Assembly (NCBI GenBank): GCA_964479005.1
Contig: CAYZJA010000001.1
Location: forward strand, 128,001-192,000
Reading direction: 5' to 3'
Source of the DNA: an uncultured Candidatus Saccharibacteria bacterium
Lineage (GTDB): Bacteria > Patescibacteriota > Minisyncoccia > UBA6257
DNA: 64,000 nt
The notes beneath the pieces are model-generated. The model had not been told where the DNA came from and did no database searches. It saw only the letters and a list, made by a program, of their open reading frames with translations. The number at the start of each line of letters is the position of its first letter. Positions within the stretch are counted from its first letter, which is position 1. The position numbers and the translations under genes were made by a program. This document shows positions 6,493 through 29,139 of this stretch, one piece after another.

Positions 6493-6610
6493 CTGGTAAT
6501 TTCAAGTTCTTGACTAATAGTTAAAGGTTGTTATACTTTAAATGTAGAAGAAAATTAAATAAAAAAGGTCGATAAAACTTTAAAATAATTATAATTGGAA
6601 TTTTAAAAAT

Positions 6611-6916: not shown

Positions 6917-6919
6917 CGG

Positions 6920-6983
6920 ATGCTGTCGTTTGGAAGTATTTGTTAGCTTGCTAATGGATATGGAAGAGTGGCAGCATTTTTTT
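6920..6983 (+). ncRNA. candidate structured small RNA, copy 1 (promoter-to-terminator unit)
   Basis: AUGCUGUCG…UGGCAGCAU forms a 9-bp outer stem around an inner GUUAG-CUUG-CUAAU hairpin, ending in U7. Both stems are kept in copy 2 by compensatory substitutions. Confidence 0.45.
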
Positions 6984-7212
6984 ATACTTACATAATAACA
7001 AAAGATACGAAGAATTGTCCTTCATATTTTTGATTGACTTTATTAATAAGACGTGATATAGTAAAAATGCTCTTAATTGAGCATTTTTTTGTACTTTGAC
7101 ATTTAAAATATATAGCCGTAACAGGGAAAATTCTTTGTTATTGGAGATAAAAGATAGATTATTAAATGATTTGATTAGTAAAAAATAAATTTAAATAAAG
7201 GAGGAAAGAAAG

Positions 7213-10353: not shown

Positions 10354-10356
10354 AAC

Positions 10357-10390
10357 AAAGGGGAAGATTAATCTTCCCCTTTTATTTTTT
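10357..10390 (+). terminator. intrinsic terminator of GT2-GH operon
   Basis: aaAGGGGAAGAttaaTCTTCCCCTtttatttttt. Confidence 0.7.
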
Positions 10391-10486
10391 ATAAATATAA
10401 AATATTTTTATCATTTAATTTATAAAGCCAATGAAAGAGTTGGCAAATCATTATTAATATCATATTTTACTTAATTAAGAGTGGAC

Positions 10487-10515
10487 TTGACAAGAAAAAA
10501 AAAGTTTGCTATTGT
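10487..10515 (+). promoter_or_regulatory. promoter (TTGACA-17-TGcTATTGT), third copy of the conserved promoter core
   Basis: 'ggacTTGACAag' and 'gtttGCTAT' are shared with the 6868 and 29130 modules. Confidence 0.5.
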
Positions 10516-10521
10516 GTTTTC

Positions 10522-10678
10522 ACGGTGGGGCTTTTATTTTAGCCCCGCAGTGGGGCTTATGAATAATATTCAAAAAAGGGGATTTCATAATTTAAACAAA
10601 ATTTCTTTTCGATTTCTTGCGTTTAGTAAAATTGAAAAAGAAGTTTTTTGAGGTTGGCGTTTTTGCGCCAACTTTTTA
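10522..10678 (+). ncRNA. structured leader or sRNA with alternative hairpins and intrinsic terminator
   Basis: GGGGCU-uuuauuuu-AGCCCC (10527-10546) overlaps AGCCCC-gcagu-GGGGCU (10541-10557), giving two mutually exclusive pairings. Later GTTGGCG-uuuuug-CGCCAAC plus U5 (10653-10677). The next gene starts at 10736. Confidence 0.4.
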
Positions 10679-10735
10679 ATATTAAAATTAATAAAAAAAA
10701 TAAATAAAAAAATAAAAATTAATAAAATAAAAAAA

Positions 10736-11998: not shown

Positions 11999-12023
11999 AA
12001 AATAAATAAAAAAAATAAAAAAT

Positions 12024-13772: not shown

Positions 13773-13878
13773 GTTATAAATAATATCCGGCAATTACAAA
13801 AGAAAAAGTTGATAGGATTTAATGGCGAATTAACCGTTCATTTTAAATAAAAGATTAAAAAGTTAAATATATAAAAAA

Positions 13879-16800
13879 ATGAAAAAACAATTTTTCTCTA
13901 AAACATTTTCAATTTTCTTGGCACTTTCTTTTGTACTTTCTAATAGCGCAATGTTAGTGCCATTACAAGCTGAAGCTTGTGAGGAAGAAATATGCGAAGA
14001 CGTTATTGTGGTAAGTAATATAGAAGATAAGGTTTTTGATATTGCAGAAACTCTTCCCGGTGAAGCAGCTGTTCTTGCTTGGGATGATCATCCGGCATGG
14101 ACAGCGTATATTGAAGGCGCAAATTGGATTTGGAAGACAGAATATGTAGAAAATCCTGATCAAGACGAAACATATATATTTAAAAAAGATTTTGATATTG
14201 TTGGCATTCCAGATTCTGCAACATTAAAAGTTGCAACTGATAATTCGTATAGTGTTTGGGTTAACAATGTTTTGATTGGAGAAGTTATAACTGAAGATAA
14301 TCACAGTTCAACAACCCAAGATCAATATAATAATATCGTTGACTTTCATACCGGTTCAAATGAAATTAAATTTGAAGTTAAAAACTGGGCAGGAAATGCG
14401 TCACCGAAATTAAATCCTGCAGGTCTTTTGTATAGACTTGAGATTGTAAGATCTTCTTGTGAACCTCAATGTATACCTCAATCTTCTATAGAAACAGACT
14501 GTACTAATGGTTTAGATGATGACTGCGATGGTTTTATTGATAGTGAAGATTCTGATTGTCAGATGTTAATAATGGCTTCTAAAGTAATTTGTGATAATGA
14601 ATCAGATTTACCTAATTGGGGGACAGGATCTGGAGTTGACTATCCTTCATATAACATTGATCAAAACACAGCTTCGGATTATGTAGCTGAACATTCTGGT
14701 TGTTATTTAGCTTCTAATTGGTTTTTTCAATGGGGACAACAAGGTTCTGATGATTTTGGAAAAGACTTTTATGGAGAAGCTGGCAATGGCTACACTACTT
14801 TTGGGCCAACAAATGAAAATGGAGTAGCTAGTACAACAGTGGATTCTGTTACCGGTAGTTATTTGGAATTAAGGGAAGTTCTGCAGCAAGGTTATATTCC
14901 TTTTACGTATGACCAATCACATAAATCTAATGATAATAATATTTCTGCAGAATTTTATTGCCACAATGATATTCTCAATTATGATAACTGGGATTATATA
15001 AAAAATCCTCAATTAGGAATTACTCATTATTGCGTTGGATTTAATGCATTAATCGAACAAGAAGAACCAGAACCTGTTTGTGGAAATGAAATTATAGAAA
15101 CTGGTGAACAATGTGATCCACCTTCAACCACTGCTCCTAATTCTACTGATGAATATTTCTGTGACCAAAATTGTAATTTAGTTCCTATCTATCATTCTCT
15201 GGATGGTTGTCCAAAAAATCAAATCCTAGAATTTATTCAGTCTTATCAAATTCATTCAACTAGTACGACAGAAGTTATTATTCCTGTGAGTGGTAGCGAT
15301 ACATATAAGTTTGAAGTTAAAGGAACTTTTTATCCTACTCAAAATGGAAAAAATGAGAATTTCCTATCAGATGCCGCCTATACGACTGAAGATGGCTGGG
15401 TTTCAACTTCTACAAAATACGGAATTAAAGGCATACCACCTGATTATGCTGCCCATGCTTTATTAGGTGATTTAGGATTAGGGGCTGGAGTAATTAATTG
15501 GGGAGATTATGATTCTTCTCATGAATATGATTTCTCTTACACAATTCCTTCAGGCGCTACTTCTACTCAATTTGTGATAGGTGATAGATGGGATAATTGG
15601 TTTATACCAGATGATATTAGTTGGAATAATCAAGGCGGAATGAAAGATAATCTTGGAAATTTGACTTTAGATGTTTATGAGTGTAAGCCAATCCAAGCTA
15701 GATGTGATCCTAAGTTAGAATTAGTTATGAATGGCGATTTTGAGAGTCCTGAAGTGACTGATCTAGTAAAAAAATGGGGTATTTTTCCATCAGGGACAAC
15801 CGATTTAGAATGGTTAATTAATTGGAGAGAAATTTGGCCTTCAGCACCAAAAATAGCAAATCTTGAAATTCAGAAAAGTTATTATACTCCAGTAATAGCT
15901 CCTGTAGTTCCTGGAGATCCAGATCAATATGCTGAGTTAGATACTGATTGGCATGGTCCAGGTGGACCTTCTGGTGAACCAGCCTCAGTAGCTATTTCTC
16001 AAGATATTCCAACAATTATAGGGGAAACTTATAGATTAAGTTTTGATTTTTCACCACGACCATATACTGATTTAGAACAGAATCATTTAAAGGGTTTTGT
16101 TGATAGCGCTGAATTATTTGATATTTCTGCTGATGGTTCTGGTTTAACAGATACTTTATGGAATCAATATTCTGATAATTTTGTTGCTACAAGTTCAATA
16201 ACAAACATTAAATTTACTGATTATGGTACACCAGACTCTTTAGGCACTTTCTTAGATAATGTTAGCGTAAGATGTGTTCCTCAGGACGAACCTACTATGT
16301 ATCATTGTAATGAGGAATGGCAATGTATAGCAGATCCTGAAGGTGAATATAATACTGATAATTGTGACAATCAATGTATTAAACCTGGAACATCCACAGT
16401 TACTATTTGTAAATATAATGAACAAGAAGAACCTTTAAGAGGTTGGAAGATGATACTTAAAGGTGATAGGTATGATACAGTGCCTGTTTTTCCAGATGGG
16501 CAAAATTATTCTTCAAATCCTTTGCTATTAGGTGATTACTTAATTCAGGCTTCTGGTCAATATTTATATAGACCAGGAACACCTGGCGCTGAGTATTCTG
16601 ATGCTGGCTATACTAAGAGGAATTGTCCAGGAGATGCTGATTATTTATGCAGTGGAGATTATACCCCATGGTTTAATGTTTTTGATATTATAGGTATTCA
16701 TCAAGGATGGTTGGGGATTATGGTTAATGATAATCTTACTGATTGGGGGTATTTTACTTCTGACCATACTTATACTCTTGGCTATCCTGGTTATAGTGGT

Positions 16801-18201
16801 TCGTTCACTTTTACTATAAAGGATGATGTATATTCAGATAATAGTGGATCATTAACAGTTAAAATCTATAAAGGCTATGTAGGGGAAACTGGAGAAAAAG
16901 GATGTGTTACATTTAATGGTGTTCCTTATGGCGAGTATATAGTTGATGAAGATCTTCAAAGTGGTTGGATAAATCAAGATGGTTTAGGAAATGTTACAGT
17001 AGATGACCTAGAAGAAACATTTGATGTTGTCAATATTCCACCAGAAGGACAGATAGGTTCTTTAACTGTTTGTAAATATAGAGATCACGAACCATTTGGG
17101 GAATACAATACAGGTATTGATACACCTCTAACTTGGGAGATGAGAATTATTGGACCTAATAGTTATGATCAATTGTACGAAACTGATCCTCAGAATGGAT
17201 GCAAAACAATAAATAATTTAGAATATGGCCAATATGTAGTTTCTGAAGAATTGAAGATTGGTTGGGATCAAACTTATCCTCTTGATCCTAATACCCATAC
17301 CATTGATATAAATGGCGGTAATTCTAATCCATCAGTATATTTCTTGAATTATAAAACAATTGATAATGGTGGAACAAAATATGCTTGTAATGCAGAAGGG
17401 CAATGTATAGAAAATGAAGGGGGTAATTATACCACTTCTAATTGTGATGAAGAATGTAGACCATATCCATATACTTGTAATTCATCTACCTCAGAATGTG
17501 TACGTGATGTTCATGGCCAATTTGGTTTATTGCAAGGTTGTGAGGATGCTTGTAGGGTATCTACTCCATTAGGAGGTCAATATGCAATATTGGGAACAGT
17601 TTTGGGTGCTGCTACTGAAAAGGAAGAAGAACCTTGCGGTCTTTATCTTTTGGAATACATAAAGCTTGGAGGTGATAATAATCCTGAGGAAGTGAAGAAA
17701 TTACAATATTTCTTAAATGAATATCTTGGCATTAATTTAGAGATAACAGGAGTTTATAATCAAGCTACTTATCAAGAAGTTATGAGATTCCAGCTTCTTT
17801 TGAACGATGAAATTTTGGCTCCTTGGGTTGAAGTTAATTGTCTTCCATCTAGTAATATAGCTACTGGTTATGTTTATCGAACAACACAATGGAAAATAAA
17901 TATGATTGTTTGTCCAGAATTGAACCTTCCAGTACCGAATTTATATGATGAAACTTGTAAATATATTAGTCTATATCCAGGAGAAGGTGTAGTTGCTGGA
18001 GCAGCTACTTCTACAGTGGGTGGAACTAATGGAACTACCACAACTACCTCAACTACAACTCCTGAAACAATAGGAGATACTACAACAACTGTTCCTCAAG
18101 ATACTGGGGATGAGCAGTCACAAAATTGGATTTGGGTTTTGATTGGACTTTTAGTGATTGGCGGCGCAGCTTATTTGGTTTATCAAACTAGACAAGTATA
18201 A
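13879..18201 (+). CDS. giant (1440 aa) cell-surface protein with C-terminal TM anchor
   Basis: Signal peptide, multiple Cys-rich beta domains, two regions ~70% identical in protein to the 12024 gene product, a Thr-rich stalk (TTTTSTTTPETIGDTTTT), and a C-terminal helix 'WIWVLIGLLVIGGAAYLVY'. Confidence 0.6.
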   Translation: MKKQFFSKTFSIFLALSFVLSNSAMLVPLQAEACEEEICEDVIVVSNIEDKVFDIAETLPGEAAVLAWDDHPAWTAYIEGANWIWKTEYVENPDQDETYIFKKDFDIVGIPDSATLKVATDNSYSVWVNNVLIGEVITEDNHSSTTQDQYNNIVDFHTGSNEIKFEVKNWAGNASPKLNPAGLLYRLEIVRSSCEPQCIPQSSIETDCTNGLDDDCDGFIDSEDSDCQMLIMASKVICDNESDLPNWGTGSGVDYPSYNIDQNTASDYVAEHSGCYLASNWFFQWGQQGSDDFGKDFYGEAGNGYTTFGPTNENGVASTTVDSVTGSYLELREVLQQGYIPFTYDQSHKSNDNNISAEFYCHNDILNYDNWDYIKNPQLGITHYCVGFNALIEQEEPEPVCGNEIIETGEQCDPPSTTAPNSTDEYFCDQNCNLVPIYHSLDGCPKNQILEFIQSYQIHSTSTTEVIIPVSGSDTYKFEVKGTFYPTQNGKNENFLSDAAYTTEDGWVSTSTKYGIKGIPPDYAAHALLGDLGLGAGVINWGDYDSSHEYDFSYTIPSGATSTQFVIGDRWDNWFIPDDISWNNQGGMKDNLGNLTLDVYECKPIQARCDPKLELVMNGDFESPEVTDLVKKWGIFPSGTTDLEWLINWREIWPSAPKIANLEIQKSYYTPVIAPVVPGDPDQYAELDTDWHGPGGPSGEPASVAISQDIPTIIGETYRLSFDFSPRPYTDLEQNHLKGFVDSAELFDISADGSGLTDTLWNQYSDNFVATSSITNIKFTDYGTPDSLGTFLDNVSVRCVPQDEPTMYHCNEEWQCIADPEGEYNTDNCDNQCIKPGTSTVTICKYNEQEEPLRGWKMILKGDRYDTVPVFPDGQNYSSNPLLLGDYLIQASGQYLYRPGTPGAEYSDAGYTKRNCPGDADYLCSGDYTPWFNVFDIIGIHQGWLGIMVNDNLTDWGYFTSDHTYTLGYPGYSGSFTFTIKDDVYSDNSGSLTVKIYKGYVGETGEKGCVTFNGVPYGEYIVDEDLQSGWINQDGLGNVTVDDLEETFDVVNIPPEGQIGSLTVCKYRDHEPFGEYNTGIDTPLTWEMRIIGPNSYDQLYETDPQNGCKTINNLEYGQYVVSEELKIGWDQTYPLDPNTHTIDINGGNSNPSVYFLNYKTIDNGGTKYACNAEGQCIENEGGNYTTSNCDEECRPYPYTCNSSTSECVRDVHGQFGLLQGCEDACRVSTPLGGQYAILGTVLGAATEKEEEPCGLYLLEYIKLGGDNNPEEVKKLQYFLNEYLGINLEITGVYNQATYQEVMRFQLLLNDEILAPWVEVNCLPSSNIATGYVYRTTQWKINMIVCPELNLPVPNLYDETCKYISLYPGEGVVAGAATSTVGGTNGTTTTTSTTTPETIGDTTTTVPQDTGDEQSQNWIWVLIGLLVIGGAAYLVYQTRQV
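16548..16730. repeat. inter-paralog DNA repeat, copy 2
   Basis: Matches 12560-12742. Confidence 0.8.
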
Positions 18202-18373
18202 ATATCAGACAAGATTGAATCAAAAAACAGTGCTGATTTAGCATTTTTTGCGTCAATTTTTAGTAGTTGGACCTAAATATGAAATTTAGGTAGTAAAAAC
18301 TAATAGGTCGATCTTTGGTAAAAACCAAAGTAAAAAAATCAAAAATAACAAATTAAATTAATTAAAAATTAAA

Positions 18374-18889
18374 ATGAAAAAGATATTAATTGGTTTAACG
18401 ATCATTACATTGGCTGCAATGGTTGCTAGTCCTGCTATGGCTTACTACTGGCCAATGCCAATGGAATCCAGTGACGTAACAGTCAATAATGATAGTTACT
18501 CGAGGATTCGCAATAACGTAACAGTTGTTGCTAAAACCGGCGATAACACTGCTAATACTGGCTCGGCAAGTTTCGGTGGTTTGGGTAGTACAATTCAGAC
18601 TGGTAATGCTGTCGCTGAAGCGACAGTAGTAACTGTTGCCAACACAAATTACACCAGAATTAAGGCTCCTTGCACTAATTGCGACGGCGATGTCACTGTT
18701 AACAATGATGATAGTGACGCTTTTGTCAGGAATAGAGTTAGGGTTATTGCCGACACCGGCGATAACACTGCTAATACTGGCTCGGCATGTTTAGGTGGTG
18801 AGGGTAGTTTGATTGTAACAGGCAGTGCATGGGCTGAAGGAAATGTTGTTACTGTTACTAACACTAACATAACCAGAATTCGCAGATAG
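18374..18889 (+). CDS. secreted protein with two tandem ~50-aa repeats
   Basis: Signal peptide. Repeats 'NNVTVVAKTGDNTANTGSASFGGLGSTIQTGNAVAEATVVTVANTNYTRI' and 'NRVRVIADTGDNTANTGSACLGGEGSLIVTGSAWAEGNVVTVTNTNITRI'. Confidence 0.55.
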   Translation: MKKILIGLTIITLAAMVASPAMAYYWPMPMESSDVTVNNDSYSRIRNNVTVVAKTGDNTANTGSASFGGLGSTIQTGNAVAEATVVTVANTNYTRIKAPCTNCDGDVTVNNDDSDAFVRNRVRVIADTGDNTANTGSACLGGEGSLIVTGSAWAEGNVVTVTNTNITRIRR

Positions 18890-18994
18890 TAATTGATTGT
18901 TATGAACAGGAAGGGGGTTCTTTGTCCTCTTCCTTGCATAAGCCCTTAAAAGATTATTTTGAGGGCTTATGCAAGGGATATTAAAAAATCAAAT

Positions 18995-19549
18995 ATGAAA
19001 AATCAAATATCAAAAATTCCGGTTTTAGTTGCTTTTCTGACAATTATTCCGTTAGTTTGCGGGGCTTTTTCCTTTGAAGAACCTTTTGATGATTTTGAAG
19101 AATGGATTTCGGATCTTAGTGATGGAATGAGTAGTACTCATATAATAAATGAAGTTAAGGTTTTAACAAATACTGGCAATAATGTAATTAATGGCGAAAT
19201 AACAGAAGGTGAAGCAAAAAGCCGGATTTTTATTAAAAACGTTATTAATGGAAAAGAAATAGACCCAATTGAGATTGAATCTGATAAAAACGAAATTAAA
19301 GTGGAAAGCCAAATTAAAACAGAAAATGGCAAAGTTATTATTCAGAGAGAAATTCAAATTGATTCTGAAAAAAGCACTGAAAATTATGAGGTTGATTTGG
19401 AAAATTCAGAAACTGAGACAGAAAGTGAAGGAATATTGAAAGACGGTTTAGATTCCTTTCAAGAAGGATGGTTAGATTTTATCGAAGATTTAAGGTCTTT
19501 TTTTGACGATATCTTTAATATTTTTAAATTAAATGCAAGAATCAAATAG
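18995..19549 (+). CDS. secreted acidic protein carrying one copy of the same repeat
   Basis: Start chosen at the ATG at 18995, which gives the signal peptide 'MKNQISKIPVLVAFLTIIPLVCGAF'. 'INEVKVLTNTGNNVINGEITEGEAKSRIFIKN' matches the repeat. Confidence 0.45.
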   Translation: MKNQISKIPVLVAFLTIIPLVCGAFSFEEPFDDFEEWISDLSDGMSSTHIINEVKVLTNTGNNVINGEITEGEAKSRIFIKNVINGKEIDPIEIESDKNEIKVESQIKTENGKVIIQREIQIDSEKSTENYEVDLENSETETESEGILKDGLDSFQEGWLDFIEDLRSFFDDIFNIFKLNARIK

Positions 19550-22163
19550 ATTAAAAAACTTTATTTTAATTCCTTTGCTAATCATAAGTTTGGTAGGTTT
19601 TAATTTTTATCCCTTTTTGGTTTTTGCAGAAGGAGATGGAGTTGTCACCGAAGGAGTAGTAATTGAGAATAATGAAGACACGCAGATTGTTACTGGAGAT
19701 TCTAATACTGAAGTTAATCTTGAAAACACTGTAAATTCTAATCTTACCGAATTAAACGGGGATGATTCTTCAGACGGAGAATCAGAACCTCTTGAGAATT
19801 TAGAATGTGAGGAAATTGATGTTACTACTTCAAGCACTGATGTTGTTTTTAATATTGCCAATGATAATGAGGCAGAAGTAGAGAATAATATCGAGACTGA
19901 GGAAGAAACTGGAGATAATGAAATTGATCAAAGTGAAGGAGATGCCATCATTGACACCGGAGATATAAATTTAGTCGTTGGCGTAGTTAATACAGTCAAC
20001 ACTAATGTTACTGGTTCTGATTTTTCTCAGCTTTTGTTAAACGTTTTTGAAAATTTAGAAGAAGATATTGATTTATCTGACCAATTAATGGGAATTTCTT
20101 CTTTGGAAAATTGTTATTCACCAATGGAATGTTTTGATCTTAATATTGTTAATGATAACCAAGGAAGTATTGAAAATAATATTTTAGTTGATGCATCAAC
20201 TGGCGAAAATACTGCCCAGAGTATTGATGGAGACGCAATCATTAAGACCGGTAACGCTAATGTTGCAGTTAATGCTTTAAATATTCTCAATACCGATATT
20301 ATCGGCTCAAACTGGACTCAGCTTATTATCAATGTATTTGATAATTGGACTGGCGATTTAGTTTTTCCCGGAAAAGGAAAAATGCAAGGATTTTTAAATC
20401 AAAAACCGCGCTCCTGTGAAGGAGATTGTGGAGATACTAATATAGTTAATTCTAATGAAGGCGAGATTGAAAATAAAGTCCATGTTCAGGCTAATACTGG
20501 CGAAAATCAATCTAATGGAAATTCAAGTATTATCCGCACTGGCCAAGCTAATGCTGAAGTTAATCTTTTAAATATTGCCAATACTAATTTATATGATAAG
20601 AATTGGTTTTTTGTAGGAATTAATAATTTTGGCAACTGGAAAGGAAATGTATTTAGTTTGCCTCCTGGTTTGGAAATGTCAGGAGATTCTAATAGTGTTC
20701 AAATTTATAATCTTGAACTAGAAGATGTTAATAATCCAACAGAAGATTTTGATAATAACACCAGTGGTAATTCTTTGAATATAGTCAATGAAAATACCGG
20801 GATTATTAAAAATAATATTATAGTTAATCTTTCGACTGGCGAGAACTCAGCTATTTCTTCTAACGGTCAGACAACGATAGAGACCGGAGATGCCAATACC
20901 CTAACTAACATTGCCAATCTTTTAAATTCAAATATTGTCGGCAGTAATTGGCTTTTGGGAACTGTAAATATTTTAGGAGATTGGAATGGAGATTTGGCTT
21001 TTGGCCGTCCTGATAATTGGATTGGTGGGAGTGTTGCCTCTTCTCATAATCCGGTTTCTCCTGGAGAAACTATAACTTATACTTTGACATATATTAACAA
21101 TGGGGATGCTGATGCTACACAAGTAATGATTATTGATGATTACGATGAGGCGCATCTTTCTATTATAGATACAGGTGGTGGAATTATCATTGATAATCCT
21201 GGCGAGATTCAGTGGGACATTGGAACAATTGCAGTAGGCGGTTCCGGTTCAGTTTCTTATTCTGCTGTAATTGATCCAGAAGTACCTTATGGTACTACCT
21301 ATCTTACTAATCAGGCGACAATTGATAGTTTTGAAGAAGATTTTAATAATGAAGATAACATTGAAATTTTATCAATTGAAGTGTATAGACCTTTGCCAGT
21401 TGCTTCAGTTATGTTGGGTTTTTCTTCTCCCTCGTCTTCGCCAAAATTGGAAATTAGCAAAACTCACAATGTAGATGATTTCGTTTATTCAGGAAGCGAT
21501 GTTGATTTTAAGATAGTGCTATATAATGATAGCGATAGTTCTGCTTATGATGTTGTCGTTTATGATACTTTACGGAACGATGCATCTGAAGCGATCAGTA
21601 CTTCCCATTGGGATTTGGGAGAAGTTTTCCCTCACGAAGAAATAATTATTGACTATACGGCAGCCATAGGTTCTGAGTTTCCAGCCGGCTTTTATACTAA
21701 TATAGCTGAGGCTCTAGGTTTTGATAGCCAGGGAAATCCAGTTAGTTCTCCTGAGGCCTCTAGCACAATTGAGGTTAGGGCGGCAGAAGTTCCTCCTGAT
21801 GAAACAGAGGAAGTGGAGGAAATTTCTCTTGAGGAGATAGAAAAGGAATTAAAAGAAATGAAAGACAAGATAAGAAAAATAAGAGAAGAGATAGAAAGAC
21901 TTTCTCATCCGTCTCCAGTCGAAGAATTTACAAGTTCTCTTCCAAAACAATTAATATCAGAGGTTTTGGCTGCTGAAGAACCTTTTGTTCCCAAAGAAAA
22001 AATTAATTTGCCTGAAAGAGGTTTGGCTCCGTTGCTTTTGGCTAGCTTAAGAGAGATAGGGGGAACGGATTGGATGATGATTTTGGCCATTTTTTGCCTT
22101 ATTGGGTTAATTATAATTGGAATTAGAGAGTGGGAATTAATTCGAAAAAAGAAAAAGAGATAA
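19533..22163 (+). CDS. large surface protein: 4 copies of the ~50-aa repeat + DUF11/CARDB-like domains + C-terminal TM anchor
   Basis: Four 'IENN(I/V)xVxAxTGxNxAxSxxGxAxIxTGxAxxxVNxLNIxNTxxxGSNW' units. 'PGETITYTLTYINNGDADATQVMIIDDYD' is DUF11-like. Coiled-coil 'EEIEKELKEMKDKIRKIREEIERL'. Terminal helix 'WMMILAIFCLIGLIIIGI'. Confidence 0.55.
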   Translation: MQESNRLKNFILIPLLIISLVGFNFYPFLVFAEGDGVVTEGVVIENNEDTQIVTGDSNTEVNLENTVNSNLTELNGDDSSDGESEPLENLECEEIDVTTSSTDVVFNIANDNEAEVENNIETEEETGDNEIDQSEGDAIIDTGDINLVVGVVNTVNTNVTGSDFSQLLLNVFENLEEDIDLSDQLMGISSLENCYSPMECFDLNIVNDNQGSIENNILVDASTGENTAQSIDGDAIIKTGNANVAVNALNILNTDIIGSNWTQLIINVFDNWTGDLVFPGKGKMQGFLNQKPRSCEGDCGDTNIVNSNEGEIENKVHVQANTGENQSNGNSSIIRTGQANAEVNLLNIANTNLYDKNWFFVGINNFGNWKGNVFSLPPGLEMSGDSNSVQIYNLELEDVNNPTEDFDNNTSGNSLNIVNENTGIIKNNIIVNLSTGENSAISSNGQTTIETGDANTLTNIANLLNSNIVGSNWLLGTVNILGDWNGDLAFGRPDNWIGGSVASSHNPVSPGETITYTLTYINNGDADATQVMIIDDYDEAHLSIIDTGGGIIIDNPGEIQWDIGTIAVGGSGSVSYSAVIDPEVPYGTTYLTNQATIDSFEEDFNNEDNIEILSIEVYRPLPVASVMLGFSSPSSSPKLEISKTHNVDDFVYSGSDVDFKIVLYNDSDSSAYDVVVYDTLRNDASEAISTSHWDLGEVFPHEEIIIDYTAAIGSEFPAGFYTNIAEALGFDSQGNPVSSPEASSTIEVRAAEVPPDETEEVEEISLEEIEKELKEMKDKIRKIREEIERLSHPSPVEEFTSSLPKQLISEVLAAEEPFVPKEKINLPERGLAPLLLASLREIGGTDWMMILAIFCLIGLIIIGIREWELIRKKKKR

Positions 22164-22181
22164 AAGAATTGAATTAGAAAT

Positions 22182-22220
22182 AAAACAGGACTGATAACAA
22201 TATTAGCCCTGTTTTGTTTT
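22182..22220 (-). repeat. 32-nt conserved hairpin/terminator-like element, copy A (inverted, diverged)
   Basis: The reverse complement reads gggctaatattgttatcagtcctgtttt. On the + strand it forms AAAACAGG-N18-CCTGTTTT followed by a T-run. Confidence 0.55.
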
Positions 22221-22329
22221 ACGATAATTGACTATTGACTCTTGGCCTATAATCTGTTATCATTTTAGAGCAATTAAAGAAGATTATTTTATAGCATTTT
22301 GAAAATTTTATAAAAAGAGGTGAAATATA

Positions 22330-22578
22330 GTGGATAAGAAAGAAAAGATAGATGTATTGGTTTTATGTTGTATGATGATAGTTTTTGTTACTTTGTCGAA
22401 ATTGACGTATAATTTTTGCATGTCTAAAGGAGTAGAATATATATCAAAATATATCGCTGCTTCTTTAACACCTTTAGAATCCATATTAGCTTTAGTTTGC
22501 TGGATTATTTTTTCTTGTCTTATGTTTCTTCTGACGCTTTACTTGTTTTGTCTTTGGAAAGATGATTTTTGCGAATGA
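22330..22578 (+). CDS. small 2-TM Cys-rich membrane protein
   Basis: GTG start with SD AGAGGTG and two hydrophobic helices. First gene of the small-ORF cluster. Confidence 0.35.
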   Translation: MDKKEKIDVLVLCCMMIVFVTLSKLTYNFCMSKGVEYISKYIAASLTPLESILALVCWIIFSCLMFLLTLYLFCLWKDDFCE

Positions 22579-22606
22579 TGAAAATTATATTAAGGAGGTA
22601 ATTAAT

Positions 22607-22849
22607 ATGTCAAGGGAATTAACAAATCTCGAGATAAGAGCATTGAATTTCAAAGTAGGAGAAAAAGTCAAGGAGTTTTTAGTGTGCGCGGTATGCAAAG
22701 GCAATCCCGGTATAGAATATGGGAATATTGACAATGTCAAATTTTGCGGTGATAAAGATTTTGCTAAAGAAAAAAAGAAGAAATTAAAAAAGAAATTTTC
22801 TAAAGATAATGTAAGCATTTTAGAAATTCAAGTTAGAAAAATAGAATAA
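22607..22849 (+). CDS. small Cys-containing protein with Lys-rich tail
   Basis: SD AAGGAGGTAATTA with an 8-nt spacer. 'CAVCKGNPGIEYGNIDNVKFCGDKDF' is a possible metal-binding knuckle. Confidence 0.4.
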   Translation: MSRELTNLEIRALNFKVGEKVKEFLVCAVCKGNPGIEYGNIDNVKFCGDKDFAKEKKKKLKKKFSKDNVSILEIQVRKIE

Positions 22850-22882
22850 TAAAATTAATTAATAAAAAAGGAGGTAATTATA

Positions 22883-23083
22883 ATGATACATATTTTAGAC
22901 ACTGAAGAAACACCTAATATTGGAAACCAAGTGTTTGCAAACTGCGGAGAGAAATTAGATTTTCGTCCTATATGCGCAGATATTTATGGCCGAAAAACTT
23001 GTCCCGAGTGTTTGAAAAAACATGATTTATTATCAAAATCGAAAACACCATCAATGTACATGTTTATACTAGAAGAAAAGTAA
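22883..23083 (+). CDS. small 4-Cys zinc-ribbon-like protein
   Basis: Identical SD (AAGGAGGTAATTA). 'CGEKLDFRPICADIYGRKTCPEC' has CxnC…CxxC spacing. Confidence 0.4.
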   Translation: MIHILDTEETPNIGNQVFANCGEKLDFRPICADIYGRKTCPECLKKHDLLSKSKTPSMYMFILEEK

Positions 23084-23191
23084 ATTTAAATTGGTGTGAG
23101 AGCCCTCTTAAAGGTACGTAAAACTATCTTAAGGGGGTTTTTATTTTGATATAGCTAAGTTGCTAAAGTTAATTTATTGTAATGATTTATT

Positions 23192-23229
23192 TAGAGCTGA
23201 TATATTGTTATCAGTCCTGTTTTGTTTTA
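23192..23229 (+). repeat. 32-nt conserved element, copy B
   Basis: tagagctgatatattgttatcagtcctgtttt is 32/32 identical to copy C. CTGATA/TATCAG palindrome followed by a T-rich run. Confidence 0.6.
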
Positions 23230-23253
23230 TAATTTGTATTAAGTTTATTAAAT

Positions 23254-24606
23254 ATGTCTTATACGGTTGACACATTATTAATTATATCTTATTTCGTAAT
23301 AATAATTCTTGTAGGTTTATTTGCAGCGAGAAAACAAACTAAAGAAGGTTTTCTTATTTCTAATAGAAAGCTTTCTTCATTTCCATTGATATCTACGATC
23401 GTAGCTTCGCTTATTGGAGGAAATGCTATTGTTGTTTTTACAACAGCTATTTTCCTATATGGAATTTCTGCTTTTTGGGGTTTTATAGGGCTTGCCTGTG
23501 GTTGTTTATGCCTTATTTTTGTTACAAAAAAGGTAAAATCAATAGCTGATGAAAAGAAGTTCTATACTCTTAGTGATTTCTTTTATGAAAAATATGGTAA
23601 AAGCGTTGGTTTATTAATAGCTTTTACTATTACATTAACCTTTTTTATTCTCTTACTTATTCAGATAATCGCTGGCAGCATTCTACTAAGTAAAATAATC
23701 GGTTTAAGCTATGTATTATCTGTTTTAATTGTAACCACAGTTGTTTTCCTTTATCTACTCGCAGCAGGCTTTAAAGCGGTTGTTAGAACAGATATTTTTC
23801 AATGTTTTGCTATTTTGATACCGCTTTTAATAATTGCTATTTTTTTATCCACTGGGAAAGGTATTAGTATTTCAGAGTTTAATCCATTTAGAAGTGGCTT
23901 TATGTCCATATCATTTTTTCTATTTGGGTTAATTACTGTGATAATTGGTGCGGATATGTGGCAACGTATTTACGCAGGGGAAAATTTCAAGACAATTAAA
24001 AAATCTTTGATTATTTCAGCTATTACTATTCCAATTATTGGTCTTGGAGTATCTATGATTGGTTTTGCAGCTAAATCAAATTTTCCAAATATTCTATCTG
24101 AAGAAGCGCTTATTTATGGTATCTCATATTTATTACCTGCTGGATTGTCTGGTTTAGCACTTGTTGTTTTATTTGCAGCAATTATGTCTACCATAGATAC
24201 GATAACATTTGTTCTGGCTACTAATTTTTCCAAAGATTTTATTTCTAGATTAAAAAACGAAGAAACTAGTAAAAAAGACCTTGTGTCTTTAACTCGTTTA
24301 GGAATATTTTTATTTATTGCCCTCGCTTTAGTTATAGCTTTATTTTATTCAAATATAATAAATGTAGCTTTATCATTAGCTAGTATGACTTTTATCTTGG
24401 CCCCAACGATAATTGGCTCCTTGTATATTAAATTAAAAAGGAGGGCAATATTATTAAGTATTTTGTCAGGATTATTCTATACCTTTTTGATGGTATTATT
24501 AGGACTTATAAAACCAGAAACCATTACCGTATCTTTGTTTATTTCTCTGGGATCTCTTTTTATAGGTCAAAAAATTTTTAAATATAAAGAGGTTAAATCT
24601 GATTAA
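23254..24606 (+). CDS. sodium:solute symporter-family (SSS-like) transporter
   Basis: About 12-13 TM helices. The N-terminal 'GFLISNRKLSSFPLISTIVASLIGG' resembles the SSS 'FLAGR…' signature region. Confidence 0.5.
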   Translation: MSYTVDTLLIISYFVIIILVGLFAARKQTKEGFLISNRKLSSFPLISTIVASLIGGNAIVVFTTAIFLYGISAFWGFIGLACGCLCLIFVTKKVKSIADEKKFYTLSDFFYEKYGKSVGLLIAFTITLTFFILLLIQIIAGSILLSKIIGLSYVLSVLIVTTVVFLYLLAAGFKAVVRTDIFQCFAILIPLLIIAIFLSTGKGISISEFNPFRSGFMSISFFLFGLITVIIGADMWQRIYAGENFKTIKKSLIISAITIPIIGLGVSMIGFAAKSNFPNILSEEALIYGISYLLPAGLSGLALVVLFAAIMSTIDTITFVLATNFSKDFISRLKNEETSKKDLVSLTRLGIFLFIALALVIALFYSNIINVALSLASMTFILAPTIIGSLYIKLKRRAILLSILSGLFYTFLMVLLGLIKPETITVSLFISLGSLFIGQKIFKYKEVKSD

Positions 24607-24609
24607 AAA

Positions 24610-24641
24610 TAGAGCTGATATATTGTTATCAGTCCTGTTTT
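24610..24641 (+). repeat. 32-nt conserved element, copy C
   Basis: Identical to copy B over 32 nt, directly after the transporter stop. Confidence 0.6.
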
Positions 24642-24677
24642 AATATAATAATAGCCAGAGATTTCCAATTCTATTAG

Positions 24678-24726
24678 GTTCTTGACTTCCTTAATAGATT
24701 GGCTATAATTGGATATAGCTAATATA
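24678..24726 (+). promoter_or_regulatory. fic promoter (TTGACT-16-TATAAT) embedded in a 10-bp inverted repeat
   Basis: ATTGGCTATA (24687-24696) and TATAGCCAAT (24717-24726) flank the -10 element and the likely transcription start. Confidence 0.45.
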
Positions 24727-24738
24727 GCCAATAATCAT

Positions 24739-25800
24739 ATGGCAAGAAATAAACAATTTGATCAGAGAATAGAAAATATTCCTACAGAAATTTGGTCAAA
24801 GCTTATACAAATTGATGAATTAAAGGGGCAATGGATTGCCGGCGCTCGGTTGAGCCCACAAGTTTTAAACCACCTTAAGCGGTCTGTTTTGATTACTTCT
24901 ACTGGTGCCTCAACTCGTATTGAGGGAGCTCGGCTTTCTGACGAAGATGTTGAGAAATTAATGCGTGGTATTGATATTCAGAAGTTTACTGACCGTGATA
25001 AGCAGGAAGTAAAGGGATATTTTGAATTACTAGAAAATATTTTTGATTCTTGGAGATCGATTAAGCTTTCAGAAAGCGCTATCAAGCATTTTCACAAAGA
25101 GCTTTTGAAGTATGTAAAAAAGGATGAACTCCACAGAGGTGATTATAAGAAAACCGAGAATAAAGTTGAGATGATTGATGCAGCTGGTAAATCCATCGGA
25201 ACTCTTTTTGACACTACACCGGTATATCTTACCCCGAAAGAAATGCAGGAATTAGTAGAGTGGACCCGAGAATCTTTGGCTGAAAAAAAATCTCATCCAC
25301 TTTTGATTGTTGGTAATTTTCTTGTTGAGTTTTTACAGATTCATCCATTCCAAGATGGCAATGGCCGGCTTAGCCGTGTTCTTACAAATCTTCTTTTATT
25401 GAAAGAGGGATATTTATATATGCCCTATATTTCTCATGAGAAGCTGGTTGAAGACAATAAGCCGGATTACTATATGGCCTTACGCAGAAGTCAAAAGACT
25501 TTTAAGACAGATCACGAAGACATCACTTCGTGGTTGGATTTCTTTTTGACTATTTTATTGAAGCAGTCAAAGATGGCCGTTGAGCTACTCTCAAAAGAGA
25601 ACATTGAAAAACTTCTTTCAATGAAGCAACTTGCTGTTTGGGAGTATTTGCAAAAGGCAAAAGAAACTACTACCGGCGAGATTATCAGAGGAACCAAGAT
25701 TACACGGCCTACTGTAAAACAGGCTCTTAACAAATTATTGCGTCTCAAAAAAATTGAACGCATTGGGCTCGGTAGAAGCACAAGATATAGAAAATTATGA
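24739..25800 (+). CDS. Fic/Doc family protein (putative AMPylase) with C-terminal winged-helix
   Basis: Canonical Fic motif 'HPFQDGNGRLSRVLTNLLL'. The start is moved to 24739 because the track's 24709 start lies inside the promoter -10 region. Confidence 0.85.
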   Translation: MARNKQFDQRIENIPTEIWSKLIQIDELKGQWIAGARLSPQVLNHLKRSVLITSTGASTRIEGARLSDEDVEKLMRGIDIQKFTDRDKQEVKGYFELLENIFDSWRSIKLSESAIKHFHKELLKYVKKDELHRGDYKKTENKVEMIDAAGKSIGTLFDTTPVYLTPKEMQELVEWTRESLAEKKSHPLLIVGNFLVEFLQIHPFQDGNGRLSRVLTNLLLLKEGYLYMPYISHEKLVEDNKPDYYMALRRSQKTFKTDHEDITSWLDFFLTILLKQSKMAVELLSKENIEKLLSMKQLAVWEYLQKAKETTTGEIIRGTKITRPTVKQALNKLLRLKKIERIGLGRSTRYRKL

Positions 25801-25830: not shown

Positions 25831-26847
25831 ATGAGTTTATCAATTGGAATTGTCGGTTTACCTAATGTGGGAAAATCCACTCTTTTTAAACTTTTAACAA
25901 AGCAGGAAGTTAATATTGCTAATTATCCATTTACTACCATTGATCCTAATGTGGCTGTTGTTTCAGTGGCTGATGAGAGATTAGAAAAAATAGCTGAGAT
26001 AAGCAAACCGGAAAAAGTAATTCCTGCCGCAATTGAATTTTTTGATATTGCAGGGTTAGTAAAAGGAGCTAATAAGGGAGAAGGGTTAGGAAATCAATTT
26101 TTAGCCCAGATTCGCGAAACCAATGCTATAGTACAAGTAGTTCGATGTTTTTCTGAAGAAACAGTAGCTCATATAGATGGCAGTATAGATCCTTTAAGAG
26201 ATATTAAAGTAGTTAATACCGAGTTAATCTTAAAAGATTTAGAAACTACAGAAAAGAGAATTAGTAAAATAGAAGGGGAAGCTCATGCTGGAAATAAAGA
26301 CATTGTTAAAGAATTAGAAATATTAAATCAGATAAAAAATTTACTAACAGAAGACAATCTTTTGATAAATTTTTTGAACGAAGAGTTATTAAATAATCCA
26401 GCAGTGAAAGATTTAAATTTTTTAACGGCAAAAAAACAAATCTACTTGTTTAATGGCAGAGACGAGGATACTCCAAAAGAAGTTATTAATTTTATTCAGC
26501 AATTAAAAAGTGAATATATTATTACTGGTTTAGAAACAAATCCTGATTTATTAGAGCTTATTAAAAAAGCCTATCAGGTTTTGGGGCTTATTAGCTTTTT
26601 TACTATTGTAGGTGAAAAAGAGGCGCGCGCTTGGCCTGTAAAAAAAGGTATTAAAGCTCAGGAAGCGGCAGGGATGATTCACAGTGATTTTGCCGATAAA
26701 TTTATTAAAGCTGAAGTTATTGATTGGAAGAAATTATTAGAAGCAGGCAAGTGGAGTGTTGCCCGCCAAAAAGGATGGATTCAATTAGAAGGAAAAGAGT
26801 ATGAGGTACAGGATGGAGATGTTATAATATTTAAACACGGGGGATGA
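25831..26847 (+). CDS. ychF: ribosome-binding ATPase YchF
   Basis: 'IGIVGLPNVGKSTLFKLLT…NYPFTTIDPNV…FFDIAGLVKGANKGEGLGNQFL' and a C-terminal TGS-like region. Confidence 0.9.
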   Translation: MSLSIGIVGLPNVGKSTLFKLLTKQEVNIANYPFTTIDPNVAVVSVADERLEKIAEISKPEKVIPAAIEFFDIAGLVKGANKGEGLGNQFLAQIRETNAIVQVVRCFSEETVAHIDGSIDPLRDIKVVNTELILKDLETTEKRISKIEGEAHAGNKDIVKELEILNQIKNLLTEDNLLINFLNEELLNNPAVKDLNFLTAKKQIYLFNGRDEDTPKEVINFIQQLKSEYIITGLETNPDLLELIKKAYQVLGLISFFTIVGEKEARAWPVKKGIKAQEAAGMIHSDFADKFIKAEVIDWKKLLEAGKWSVARQKGWIQLEGKEYEVQDGDVIIFKHGG

Positions 26848-29017: not shown

Positions 29018-29018
29018 T

Positions 29019-29080
29019 AAAAAAATGCTACTGCCCTTTGAAACTAAATAGCAAGCTATTCAATCTCTCTAGACAGTAGC
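29019..29080 (-). ncRNA. candidate structured small RNA, copy 2
   Basis: The minus-strand transcript is caAUGCUACUGuc…AAUAG-CUUG-CUAUU…ggGCAGUAGCAU followed by U7. The outer stem is 9-11 bp. Confidence 0.45.
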
Positions 29081-29081
29081 A

Positions 29082-29130
29082 TTGGTAGTATAGCAAACAT
29101 TTAAGTCTTGTCAAGTCCCATTGTGGATAA
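29082..29130 (-). promoter_or_regulatory. conserved promoter module, copy 2 (DnaA-box-like + -35 + extended -10)
   Basis: The reverse complement reads aagTTATCCACAatgggacTTGACAagacttaaatgttTGcTATACTac. Confidence 0.6.
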
Positions 29131-29139
29131 CTTAAAATT

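Follow-up and report, generated by a model that had tools for sequence, protein, structure and literature searches.

Repetitive extragenic palindromes (REPs) occur as tens to hundreds of dispersed copies and are linked to RAYT transposases, the Correia elements of Neisseria carry promoters and terminators, and the JUMPstart sequence is not a hairpin and acts through RfaH. MITEs, of about 100-600 bp, have terminal inverted repeats and a target-site duplication. Integron attC sites are 57-141 nt long, conserved in structure and not in sequence, carry R''/L''-L'/R' boxes (GTTRRRY) and extrahelical bases, and lie beside intI/attI, while Xer/dif-like (pdif) sites have two 11-bp arms and a 6-8-bp central region. 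To our knowledge, the signals that govern transcription are almost entirely uncharacterized in the Patescibacteria (CPR), bacteria with tiny genomes that do not grow alone; a search of the literature on terminators in Patescibacteria found no paper.

Here we describe a hairpin element in a 64-kb window (the whole stretch of DNA analysed, 12% of a 551-kb genome). Like intrinsic and bidirectional terminators, it has a stem-loop followed by a T-run, is found after the stop codons of co-directional genes and shows A-run/T-run symmetry. Unlike them, it is conserved across paralogues and orthologues in sequence and not in structure alone, occurs at one locus only, has a fixed -10-like box downstream and a -35-like hexamer in the loop and, in its B-type copies, follows another terminator. 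It resembles REP/BIME and other repetitive extragenic palindromes in being a short imperfect palindrome after stop codons, with a possible role in termination or mRNA stabilization and with copies that appear to recombine. Its copies are few, however, and all upstream of ychF, with no terminal inverted repeats, target-site duplications or transposase, and no RAYT (Y1 transposase) was found in the 64-kb window. A MITE is likewise a poor match for a 34-nt palindrome without target-site duplication whose flank homology tracks the neighboring genes, as is a CRISPR array, with spacers of 25-70 nt, for copies spaced ~1.0 and 1.4 kb apart with genes between them. JUMPstart/ops elements of polysaccharide loci are similar as short conserved sequences between conserved genes and an exchanged variable cluster, though no RfaH-type factor is implied for the ychF-upstream element. 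With attC the element shares the arrangement of folded palindromic sites punctuating variable, co-directional accessory genes.

We propose that the element represents a locus-restricted family of 34-nt hairpins that combine an intrinsic-terminator-type signal with a sigma-70-type promoter at the 5´ edge of the ychF operon, a reading to which we give a probability of roughly 0.55 from sequence comparison. It is probably a plain punctuation mark between modules and not a recombination site of integron type.

Three copies and a relic within 6.5 kb

The original prediction drew attention to a 32-nt sequence, TAGAGCTGATATATTGTTATCAGTCCTGTTTT, identical at all 32 positions at two sites and located just after stop codons. 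The identity is exact, with two occurrences on the + strand (in copies B and C, Table 1) and none expected in 100 shuffles. The placement was correct for copy C, which lies 4 nt past the stop codon of the SSF gene, but not for copy B, which is 107 nt from the stop of the 66-aa ORF and ~45 nt past a separate, strong terminator-like hairpin. Copy A lies 18 nt past the stop codon of an 876-aa DUF11 surface protein gene, so that only A and C, among the three, directly follow a gene.

A covariance-model scan of the window detected these three copies (57.6, 55.1 and 57.9 bits for A, B and C, respectively) and, together with a relic, they lie within 6.5 kb. No further family copy was found by the model in the 64-kb window or in ~220 kb of loci. 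The relic, E0, scores below the covariance-model threshold and was recognized by alignment: its left flank, A-run and CAG.GCTGAT match an intact copy after the orthologous gene in the related locus L033, while the top of the hairpin is deleted.

Table 1. Features of the region, in window coordinates
Feature	Position	Strand	Remarks
Decayed fourth copy E0, AAAAAACAGTGCTGATTTAGCATTTTTT	18222-18249	+	After stop of 1440-aa surface protein gene; found by alignment
Copy A, AAAACAGGACTGATA-ACAA-TATTAGCCCTGTTTT	22182-22215	+	Hairpin with flipped top
TACGAT box	22220-22225		Downstream of copy A
Promoter-like site TTGACT-17-TATCAT	22235-22263	+	Separate; between copy A and small-ORF module
Small-ORF module	22330-23083	+	82 aa (membrane-like), 80 aa, 66 aa
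80-aa ORF	22607-22849	+	CxxC
66-aa ORF	22883-23083	+	Two CxxC
Independent terminator-like hairpin and U-run	23096-23150	+	Closes small-ORF module; hairpin proper 23096-23144, -21.3 kcal/mol, then GGGGGUUUUUAUUUU
Copy B	23188-23223	+	32-mer at 23192-23223; orthologue in L025 at 8538
Promoter-like site in copy B	23205-23233	+	TTGTTA (loop and right arm), 17 nt, TATAAT; 10/12 consensus matches
Sodium:solute symporter family (SSF) gene	23254-24606	+	PF00474, E 1.3e-27; flanked by B and C
Copy C	24606-24641	+	32-mer at 24610-24641; A-run overlaps SSF stop codon
Fic module	24682-25800	+	Promoter-like TTGACT-16-TATAAT at 24682-24709; Fic/wHTH gene at 24739-25800
ychF	25831-26847	+	Pfam; first gene of conserved operon anchoring right end of variable region
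RpoD	59508-60824		Sigma70 regions 1.1, 1.2, 2, 3, 4

The family lies upstream of ychF in related genomes

The motif extends beyond the window and was found in homologous loci of relatives, again upstream of ychF. For ~20 related Paceibacteria loci, in which copies were located with blastn-short and the covariance model, comparison defined the family as a 34-nt hairpin, AAAACAGGGCTGATA-TTGT-TATCAGYCCTGTTTT, with a 15-bp stem followed by a T-run. An exact 20-mer scan of metagenome contigs yielded nine genuine hairpins (L009, L012, L015, L016, L018, L020, L021, L022 and L024), all upstream of ychF. The remaining seven of 16 metagenome loci have no left arm and were excluded as unrelated or chance matches; two such excluded loci, L014 and L017, scored only 18-19 bits with the covariance model. 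Seven more loci, reached via YchF and Fic homologues (L025, L028, L031, L033, L034, L038 and L041), have one to three copies each, only upstream of ychF. Across the family there are one to four copies per genome region, and ychF lies downstream of every member wherever the contig is long enough. We also note that L009, L015, L016 and L022 had wrongly been taken for close YchF relatives: their YchF is only 50-54% identical to that of the window, while the flanking genes are 82-91% identical.

Searches elsewhere gave little. The same 20-mer had only five matches in a set of species-representative genomes, in unrelated or non-hairpin contexts, three of them sharing one non-hairpin flank. Rfam had no match at the gathering score, with only chance-level matches elsewhere in 22100-24760. 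The hairpin and T-run form and the AT-rich genome would suit three generic terminators that are similar by chance, or a species-wide terminator consensus. This explanation, which we regard as scarcely credible, is refuted by the chance expectation of zero for the 32-mer, by conservation of the family across relatives and by its occurrence at one locus only in 64 kb; other terminators of the window, moreover, have unrelated stems.

Structure and sequence constraint of the hairpin

Consensus copies are predicted to fold as RNA at -21.5/-22.2 kcal/mol and copy A at -19.4 kcal/mol (z -9.4; -8 to -9 across A and the consensus copies). Copy C is intermediate (-13.8 kcal/mol, z -5.5). Its left arm has a derived TAGAG and an extra TA, both in common with copy B, while its orthologues in L025, L028 and L022 match the consensus there. 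Copy B is weak, at only -9.3 kcal/mol (z -2.7), with a degenerate outer left arm (TATTTAGAG) and the extra TA at the top. In the family alignment, 92.6% of stem cells are paired, versus 31-57% with the partners slid, and the gene strand has 22 G.U cells versus 6 A.C cells. The outer stem CAGGGC/GCCCTG persists in two more distant relatives, L040 and L039, whose hairpin tops are different and GC-rich and, read on the gene strand, have GNRA loops. It is these variant hairpins from which we draw support for the stem, not covariation within the clade, which falls short of significance: both sides change in three pairs, a result matched in 76 of 500 shuffles. Most stem pairs are invariant, which is compatible with a DNA-binding site as well.

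The T-run is formed by TTTT at the base of the right arm and, in most copies, further T residues (GTTTT, AGTTT or ATTTT). It can pair in part with the upstream A-run, and a simple terminator scan flagged none of the copies. The suggestion that the element terminates transcription fits the intrinsic-terminator form of copy A and the consensus copies, with a stem-loop of -19 to -22 kcal/mol and a T-run. We consider that transcription would end at the T-run.

The claim that the identity exceeds what a generic terminator needs was borne out as regards sequence constraint. Of 22 distinct copies, 15 have an unaltered 16-nt core, CTGATATTGTTATCAG, and four more differ in it only by an inserted TA, whereas the 67-aa gene has an ordinary terminator that diverges strongly among these genomes and shows compensatory changes. 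Fourfold-degenerate sites of neighboring genes are 56-84% identical. This comparison supports stronger constraint on the sequence of the element than on that of an ordinary terminator.

The core, CTGATA-N4-TATCAG, is a perfect 16-bp palindrome and is more conserved than the outer stem. It could accordingly be read as a dimer site for a palindrome-binding factor, with the ychF, SSF and small-ORF promoters as a small regulon. CTG-N10-CAG with an AT-rich center may resemble some known operators, the core overlaps the putative -35 hexamer and spacer, and the invariance of most stem pairs leaves pairing without proof from covariation. We nevertheless think an operator unlikely. No candidate regulator is conserved beside the copies, the Fic/wHTH gene being missing in L025, L028, L031 and L033, and each arm of the palindrome, with its A/T run, reaches 15 bp, a length that an operator would not need but that terminators typically show. 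In L040 and L039 the base of the stem persists but the whole core has given way to other self-complementary sequences with GNRA loops; the gene strand favors G.U over A.C, and copy 1 of L041 keeps TTGT even though its core symmetry is broken.

A promoter-like arrangement at fixed spacing

In support of the preferred terminator-promoter reading, a TAnnnT-type hexamer is found exactly 17 nt past TTGT(TA) in 21 of 21 unflipped copies (TATAAT in 12); the intervening 3-5 nt are variable. In copy B, the promoter-like site formed in this way lies 20 nt ahead of the SSF start codon. The window encodes an RpoD with all of the Sigma70 regions listed in Table 1. The gap between the element and the ychF ATG is only 18-20 nt in L025, L028, L033, L015 and L041, and two of these loci, L025 and L028, have SSF coding sequence directly upstream of the element that precedes ychF; with so short a gap and coding sequence directly upstream, there is no room for another promoter. 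Promoters so near the ATG imply near-leaderless ychF mRNAs, which are undocumented for these organisms.

Some copies fit less well. The -10 is poor (TAATAA) in window copy C and in L022, and the Fic gene downstream has its own promoter-like site. Two flipped copies are without TTGTTA. Downstream of copy A lies the separate promoter-like site at 22235-22263, where the TAATTGACYATTGAC block is conserved in the A-type copies of L025, L033 and L015. A scan for promoter consensus matches found no excess in the real sequence over shuffled sequence (88 versus 82.5), so the promoter case is one of positional conservation among related, non-independent copies. On this evidence the element's promoter activity is plausible, and the additional sequence constraint appears better explained by an embedded promoter (TTGTTA-17-TATAAT/TAnnnT).

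These features also bear on the possibility that the element acts only as RNA, as an intercistronic hairpin that stabilizes or processes mRNA (REP-like or RNase III-like) with neither termination nor a promoter. The stable 15-bp duplex on the gene strand with tolerated G.U pairs, the position of A and C directly after stop codons, the co-directional genes throughout the region and the very short gap to the ychF start codon could all be understood in this way. Left unexplained would be the constant 17-nt distance between TTGTTA and the TAnnnT box in every unflipped copy, as well as the B-type copies, which have lost the outer left arm while retaining the right half with the -10 box and are placed behind a separate terminator. 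Copies behind another terminator with no coding sequence directly upstream (L031, L038 and window copy B) are also difficult to reconcile with a purely intercistronic role, and we judge it improbable to much the same degree as an operator.

Variable modules and the recombination-site reading

Upstream of the ychF operon is a hypervariable stretch whose genes are all co-directional, and every copy found lies within it, at junctions of modules that vary among relatives (surface proteins, small CxxC ORFs, the SSF transporter and Fic). The expectation that the motif lies 3´ of genes and flanks variable cassettes agrees with the position of copies at boundaries of variable modules, while copy B shows that copies are not always directly 3´ of genes. 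The small-ORF module has no Pfam match for any of its three ORFs, and homologues of the 80-aa and 66-aa ORFs are found between element copies in L033, L015 and L041. A hairpin analogous to the one that closes this module is present upstream of the B-type copy of L025. The SSF gene is present in L025 and L028 and missing at the same position in L031, L033, L038 and L041, and the window Fic gene is 94% identical to that of L022 at the amino acid level.

Such an arrangement might be expected if the hairpin were the site of a trans-acting recombinase (attC-like, Xer/pdif-like or serine-recombinase-like) at which modules are inserted or excised precisely. Besides the location of copies at the boundaries of variable modules, the SSF gene lies between direct copies and is missing in L033, where one hybrid-looking copy remains; the cargo is of accessory type (Fic, putative toxin-antitoxin pairs and small ORFs); and the asymmetric loop would give the site polarity. 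The junctions, however, are imprecise. The Fic module begins 13 nt past the element in the window and in L022, but in L041 it starts inside the 5´ end of ychF, with a 30-nt remnant of ychF preceding it. Where L028 and L031 differ by the presence of SSF, the left edge of the indel carries no copy; the second copy is missing for modules in L009, L022 and L034; and some modules in L009, L022, L028 and L034 are bordered by a copy on a single side or are without one on both sides. Among the ORFs of 140 aa or more in the window and the 21-kb loci, we detected no integrase, transposase or HUH enzyme; for integrase, this covers 44 such ORFs in the 64-kb window and the annotated loci. The element itself, 34 nt long with a 4-nt loop and a near-perfect stem of 15 bp, has no GTTRRRY/RYYYAAC ends, extrahelical bases or 6-8-nt spacer, and its 15-bp arms around 4 nt differ from the Xer/dif (pdif) design. 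The idea of a cassette boundary reminiscent of attC is therefore not supported, given the heterogeneous junctions, the modules without flanking copies, the lack of a recombinase in the window and the lack of attC features, and a precise recombination site of any of these kinds seems to us distinctly improbable.

A phage or plasmid att site was rejected, since searches of viral contigs, phages and plasmids did not recover the element, with no meaningful plasmid match; this absence also argues against a recombinase site. The 1446-bp Logan contig L008, both ends of which lie inside the repeat, was set aside as an assembly break at the exact 32-nt repeat and not evidence of a circle. A further variant would have a dedicated recombination or capture site whose enzyme is encoded elsewhere in these ~0.55-Mb genomes, making the ychF-upstream region a minimal integron-like platform. 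Each module would then arrive with, or land behind, a terminator-promoter hairpin; the enzyme would also cause the loop flip as a side effect, and some heterogeneous junctions would reflect secondary decay. We consider this very doubtful.

Gene conversion and inversion of the hairpin top

Window copies B and C share TAGAG, the extra TA and CAGTCC, none of which is common to their orthologues in L025, L028 and L022. As these derived changes are missing from the orthologues, we attribute the 32/32 identity of B and C to recent gene conversion. In L033, a single copy combines a B-type left flank with the ychF right flank.

Copy A had been described as a diverged inverted copy. A third copy does exist (22178-22203 is 96% complementary to 23202-23227 across 26 nt), but only the inner hairpin is inverted, changing the loop from TTGT to ACAA along with a G.T position, and the flanks are colinear with the orthologous copies in L025 (7494) and L015. 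Insertion of the whole element in reverse is rejected on account of these colinear flanks. The top of the palindrome is likewise flipped in the L015 orthologue of copy A. Minute hairpin-loop inversions are known from plastid non-coding DNA, where they recur independently in related lineages (PMC2903610, PMC6824564). As in the plastid cases described there, the loop is reverse-complemented with colinear flanks, here together with the mismatched stem top; unlike them, the flip is on a bacterial chromosome and would remove a putative -35 hexamer.

Discussion

Our model for the terminator-promoter hairpin has two levels. In RNA of the gene strand, an intrinsic-terminator-type or 3´-end hairpin would close the upstream transcription unit. 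In DNA, the same sequence would serve as a sigma-70-type promoter, with the loop and descending arm giving TTGTTA as the -35, the stem and T-run forming the 17-nt spacer and a TATAAT/TAnnnT box acting as the -10. Transcription would thereby restart into the next module or, in the simplest relatives, into ychF itself.

We take the region upstream of ychF to be a recombination hot spot at which surface-protein genes, small ORFs, SSF, Fic and even the ychF allele are exchanged between relatives. Extra copies of the element would arise because segments carrying it are duplicated or imported there. Once present, paralogous copies interact: B and C have been homogenized by gene conversion, recombination between copies may delete or insert the intervening DNA, as the hybrid copy of L033 suggests, and the top of the palindrome occasionally flips, as in copy A and its L015 orthologue.

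The element reveals no new class of mobile element, and it clearly exemplifies how an intergenic repeat in bacteria can undergo both gene conversion and hairpin-loop inversion. Because it marks the rplJL-ychF recombination hot spot, where surface and accessory genes appear to be exchanged, it is a useful landmark for studies of strain variation and host attachment. If the proposed reading is true, a stop signal and a start signal are combined within 45 nt, which would illustrate how compact genomes insulate and express acquired genes.

A family of hairpins upstream of ychF

As the original prediction had stated, the 32-mer TAGAGCTGATATATTGTTATCAGTCCTGTTTT occurs in two identical copies, exactly twice in the window (G+C content 32%), within copies B and C; in shuffled sequence, 0 occurrences are expected. 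A third related sequence, copy A, was recovered by an inverted-pair search (26 nt, 96% complementary), and a decayed fourth copy 3´ of the gene for a 1440-aa surface protein was seen by alignment with L033 (L numbers denote related loci or contigs compared with the window). Based on the YchF homologues, the host organism belongs to Paceibacteria/Parcubacteria within Patescibacteria.

Species-representative genomes and metagenome contigs were scanned with a 20-mer from the right arm. The species-representative genomes gave just five matches, all in unrelated or non-hairpin contexts (three of the five having one non-hairpin flank in common), and the metagenome contigs gave 16 loci, with the complete hairpin in nine. 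With further copies gathered from relatives found via YchF and Fic homologues, the observation is confirmed and widened to a family of 22 distinct copies. The consensus, AAAACAGGGCTGATA-TTGT-TATCAGYCCTGTTTT, is a 15-bp stem with a 4-nt loop followed by further T residues. Consensus copies folded as RNA at -21.5 and -22.2 kcal/mol (z -7.9 and -8.9), and window copies A, C and B at -19.4, -13.8 and merely -9.3 kcal/mol, respectively. When covariance model R1 was run on the 64-kb window and on ~220 kb of related loci, no additional copy was detected, and an Rfam search returned no match for the element.

Features of the region. Window features are listed in gene order, followed by features of related loci.
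Feature	Sequence	Position	Description
HTH + SocA/Panacea antitoxin-like protein	window	271-1047
rplJ-rplL, tRNA-Val, 67-aa gene	window	5360-6810
Small unit, first copy	window	6869-6984 (+)
Cell-surface/cell-envelope gene block	window	7213-22163	15 kb; glycosyltransferase, GH113, Big_7, DUF642/SpaA, 1440-aa protein, 876-aa DUF11 protein
Internal repeat in block (example)	window	12408-12942 vs 16396-16927
Decayed fourth copy	window	18222-18249
876-aa DUF11 surface protein gene	window
Copy A	window	22182-22215	flipped top
Three small ORFs	window		82, 80, 66 aa; CxxC motifs in 80-aa and 66-aa ORFs
Separate terminator-like hairpin	window	23096-23144	-21.3 kcal/mol
Copy B	window	23188-23223	32-mer at 23192-23223
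SSF transporter	window
Copy C	window	24606-24641	32-mer at 24610-24641
Fic/wHTH gene	window	24739-25800	own TTGACT-16-TATAAT site
ychF	window	25831-26847
Small unit, second copy	window	29018-29133 (-)	inverted
Second Sigma70_r4 + HARE-HTH protein	window	52317-53462
TrwB/TraG-like type IV coupling protein	window	54660-56210	C-terminal treble-clef zinc finger
ychF 5´-end remnant	L041	2477-2510	30 nt, ATGAATCTTTCTATTGGAATTGTCGGTTTG
GC-rich stretch	L021	5340-5535
GC-rich stretch	L034	4290-4485
GC-rich stretch	L024
Long-armed inverted element	L028	~8330-8450
Long-armed inverted element	L034	~4010-4180

Wherever a contig reaches far enough to tell, all genuine copies are upstream of ychF, at junctions of modules that differ among relatives. 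Given the position of rplJ-rplL, tRNA-Val and the 67-aa gene, the variable DNA from these genes to ychF amounts to ~19 kb in the window, compared to 0.7 kb in L031. Hence, the element is not limited to one genome, nor is it a species-wide terminator consensus, the two outcomes that the original prediction had named as counting against it. The surface gene block has internal repeats, and its position is occupied by wholly different genes in relatives.

Module arrays in related loci. E, element copy; slash, junction.
Locus	Array
L031, L038	67-aa gene, sRNA-like unit / E / ychF
L016	surface genes / E / ychF
L028	... SSF / E / ychF
L025	surface genes / E / two small ORFs / E / SSF / E / ychF
L033	surface gene / E / five small ORFs / E / ychF
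L015	surface genes / E / two small ORFs / E / ychF
L021, L024	245-aa gene / E / 238-aa PG-binding gene / E / ychF
L022	surface gene / E / Fic / ychF (no copy between Fic and ychF)
L009	surface genes / E / two genes / ychF (no copy between the two genes and ychF)
L041	peptidase / E / two small ORFs / E / ychF remnant / Fic / ychF

Sequence constraint and a putative embedded promoter

Neighbouring genes of the compared genomes are 81-95% identical in nucleotide sequence and 56-84% identical at fourfold-degenerate sites. As an internal control, we used the ordinary terminator of the 67-aa gene, which is remodelled between genomes by compensatory changes (GACCTGTTATA...TATAGCAGGTC in the window, GGCCTGTTGTA...TGTAGCAGGTC in L028 and GGATCCATTATA...TATAATGGATCC in L038). 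Of the 22 distinct copies of the element, 15 retain an intact 16-nt core and four more depart from it solely by an inserted TA. Since the core is kept while the control terminator is remodelled, the element is more constrained than a generic terminator. This constraint is asymmetric; the right arm, T-run and following box are retained, and the outer left arm is gone in B-type copies (window B, L025 B, L033 and L041).

The box is a TAnnnT-type hexamer, found exactly 17 nt past TTGT(TA) in 21/21 unflipped copies (TATAAT in 12, TAAAAT in three, TAATAA in two, and TAAGAT, TATTAT, TACAAT and TATAAC in one each) and separated from the T-run by 3-5 nt of variable sequence. The element is just 18-20 nt from the ychF ATG in L025, L028, L033, L015 and L041, and the SSF coding region of L025 and L028 stops directly before it, so any promoter of ychF's own there must be that of the element. 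A complete RpoD is encoded in the genome, and clear TTGACA/TATAAT-type sites are present elsewhere in the window; a generic promoter scan of the region scored no better than shuffles. The box spacing, the short gap to ychF, RpoD and the sites elsewhere lead us to infer a terminator-type hairpin fused to a promoter. Of the terminator with an additional sequence-specific role proposed originally, the terminator is plausible and the role, judged from sequence, is most likely an embedded promoter.

Covariation is weak because the stem is mostly invariant within the clade; the number of pairs altered in both arms (three) is not significant, and G.U outnumbers A.C on the gene strand (22 vs 6). Stronger evidence that the hairpin itself matters comes from two more distant relatives, with flanking genes ~60% identical, in which hairpins were found upstream of ychF (L040, GGGGACAGGGCCGGC-GCAA-TGCCGGCCCTGTTTGATTT) and 3´ of a surface-protein gene (L039, GGGGTCAGGGCCGACTT-GTGA-AAGTCGGCCCTGTTTT). 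Both have the outer stem and left flank of the family. Their tops are unlike each other yet self-complementary, and on the gene strand each carries a GNRA loop. The hairpin therefore predates the CTGATA-TTGT-TATCAG top, which is the part that creates TTGTTA.

Flipping of copy A and probable gene conversion between copies B and C

Copy A, described earlier as an inverted copy, is a genuine relative, but inverted insertion was rejected, as its left flank (upstream gene 3´ end plus GAATTAGA.A) and right flank (GTTTTA..ATAATTGACYATTGA) are colinear with those of the orthologous copies of L025, L033 and L015. The inner part alone is reverse-complemented (GCTGATATTGTTATCAGY to ACTGATAACAATATTAGC). 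The same flip is found in L015 and not in L025 or L033, and is therefore recurrent or polymorphic. Plastid spacers provide well-documented cases of minute inversions in hairpin loops (PMC2903610, PMC6824564).

Window copies B and C have in common TAGAG, the inserted TA and CAGTCC. The L025 orthologues of B and C are TATTAAAGGCTGATATTGTTATCAGCCCTGTTTT and AAAACAGGGCTGATATTGTTATCAGTTCTGTTTT, respectively, and the left arm at the C position in L028 and L022 is consensus too. Derived states common to paralogues of one genome and absent from their orthologues indicate gene conversion across ~32 nt between B and C. The exact identity, originally taken to suggest a sequence-specific role, therefore points to recent recombination rather than a 32-nt functional need. 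In L033, the copy nearest to ychF is B-type in its left flank and left arm yet runs directly into ychF, as expected if SSF had been deleted, or inserted, via B x C recombination. L008, a 1446-bp Logan contig found in six samples, begins within copy B and stops within copy C; the most likely cause is that assembly broke off at this exact 32-nt repeat, and a circular SSF-plus-hairpin molecule would give the same pattern.

Recombination at module boundaries

Judged from the sequence comparisons, element copies recombine with one another, in a region that is a hot spot. Identity of the window group to the L009/L015/L016/L022 group is just 50-59% for ychF itself and 82-94% for the flanking genes, a pattern suggesting that recombination has replaced the ychF allele. 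Individual values are 94% for Fic, 86-91% for a 116-aa gene and 82-88% for a 236-aa gene.

The copies mark the module boundaries and recombine there, but the attC-like cassette boundary proposed originally is not supported. The junctions are imprecise; the Fic module begins 13 nt past the element in the window and L022 but differently in L041, where a 30-nt remnant of the ychF 5´ end intervenes. Additionally, no copy borders the left side of the SSF indel that distinguishes L028 from L031, and several modules, in L009, L022 and L034, are accompanied by a single copy or by none. The 44 window ORFs of 140 aa or more and the annotated 21-kb loci include no integrase, transposase or HUH enzyme. 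The element was absent from IMG/VR contigs and phage records, gave only chance-level matches in plasmids, and has no defining feature of attC, Xer sites, MITEs, REP/BIME or CRISPR repeats. A site-specific recombination site is thus quite improbable, and the L041 junction fits homology-facilitated illegitimate recombination of imported DNA. The L041 remnant, lying between the hairpin and Fic with a complete ychF 3´ of Fic, appears to be the scar of an insertion or replacement event.

Other features of the region

The two copies of the small unit (116 nt, 78% identical) consist of a strong promoter-like site (TTGACA, 16-17 nt, TATACT) followed by a hairpin of ~60 nt, in which the AGCTTGCTA loop is conserved, and a T-run. 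The unit is conserved 3´ of the 67-aa gene in L028, L031 and L038, has no Rfam match and looks like a small RNA gene. Another repeat, which has long inverted arms (CCCCCACACCATAAYGAGCAC ... GTGCTCATTTGGTRTGGGG) and interrupts the -35 region of this unit or lies between modules, may be a MITE-like insertion. The GC-rich stretch (~200 nt) between hairpin and ychF in three loci has a Shine-Dalgarno-like site, a possible 20-codon basic ORF (MLLKKPSRRPKRVWLERSHV) and more hairpins. For the Fic/wHTH protein, >100 cluster representatives are 81-95% identical, unusually high conservation for an accessory gene, with named sources including Parcubacteria, Portnoybacteria, Buchananbacteria and Omnitrophota; in another lineage (L044-L046), the gene is again ~2.4 kb upstream of a ychF gene.

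Discussion

The element family is undescribed and would belong to the intergenic terminator/promoter palindromes. It comes from a poorly studied phylum, and its interest is moderate.
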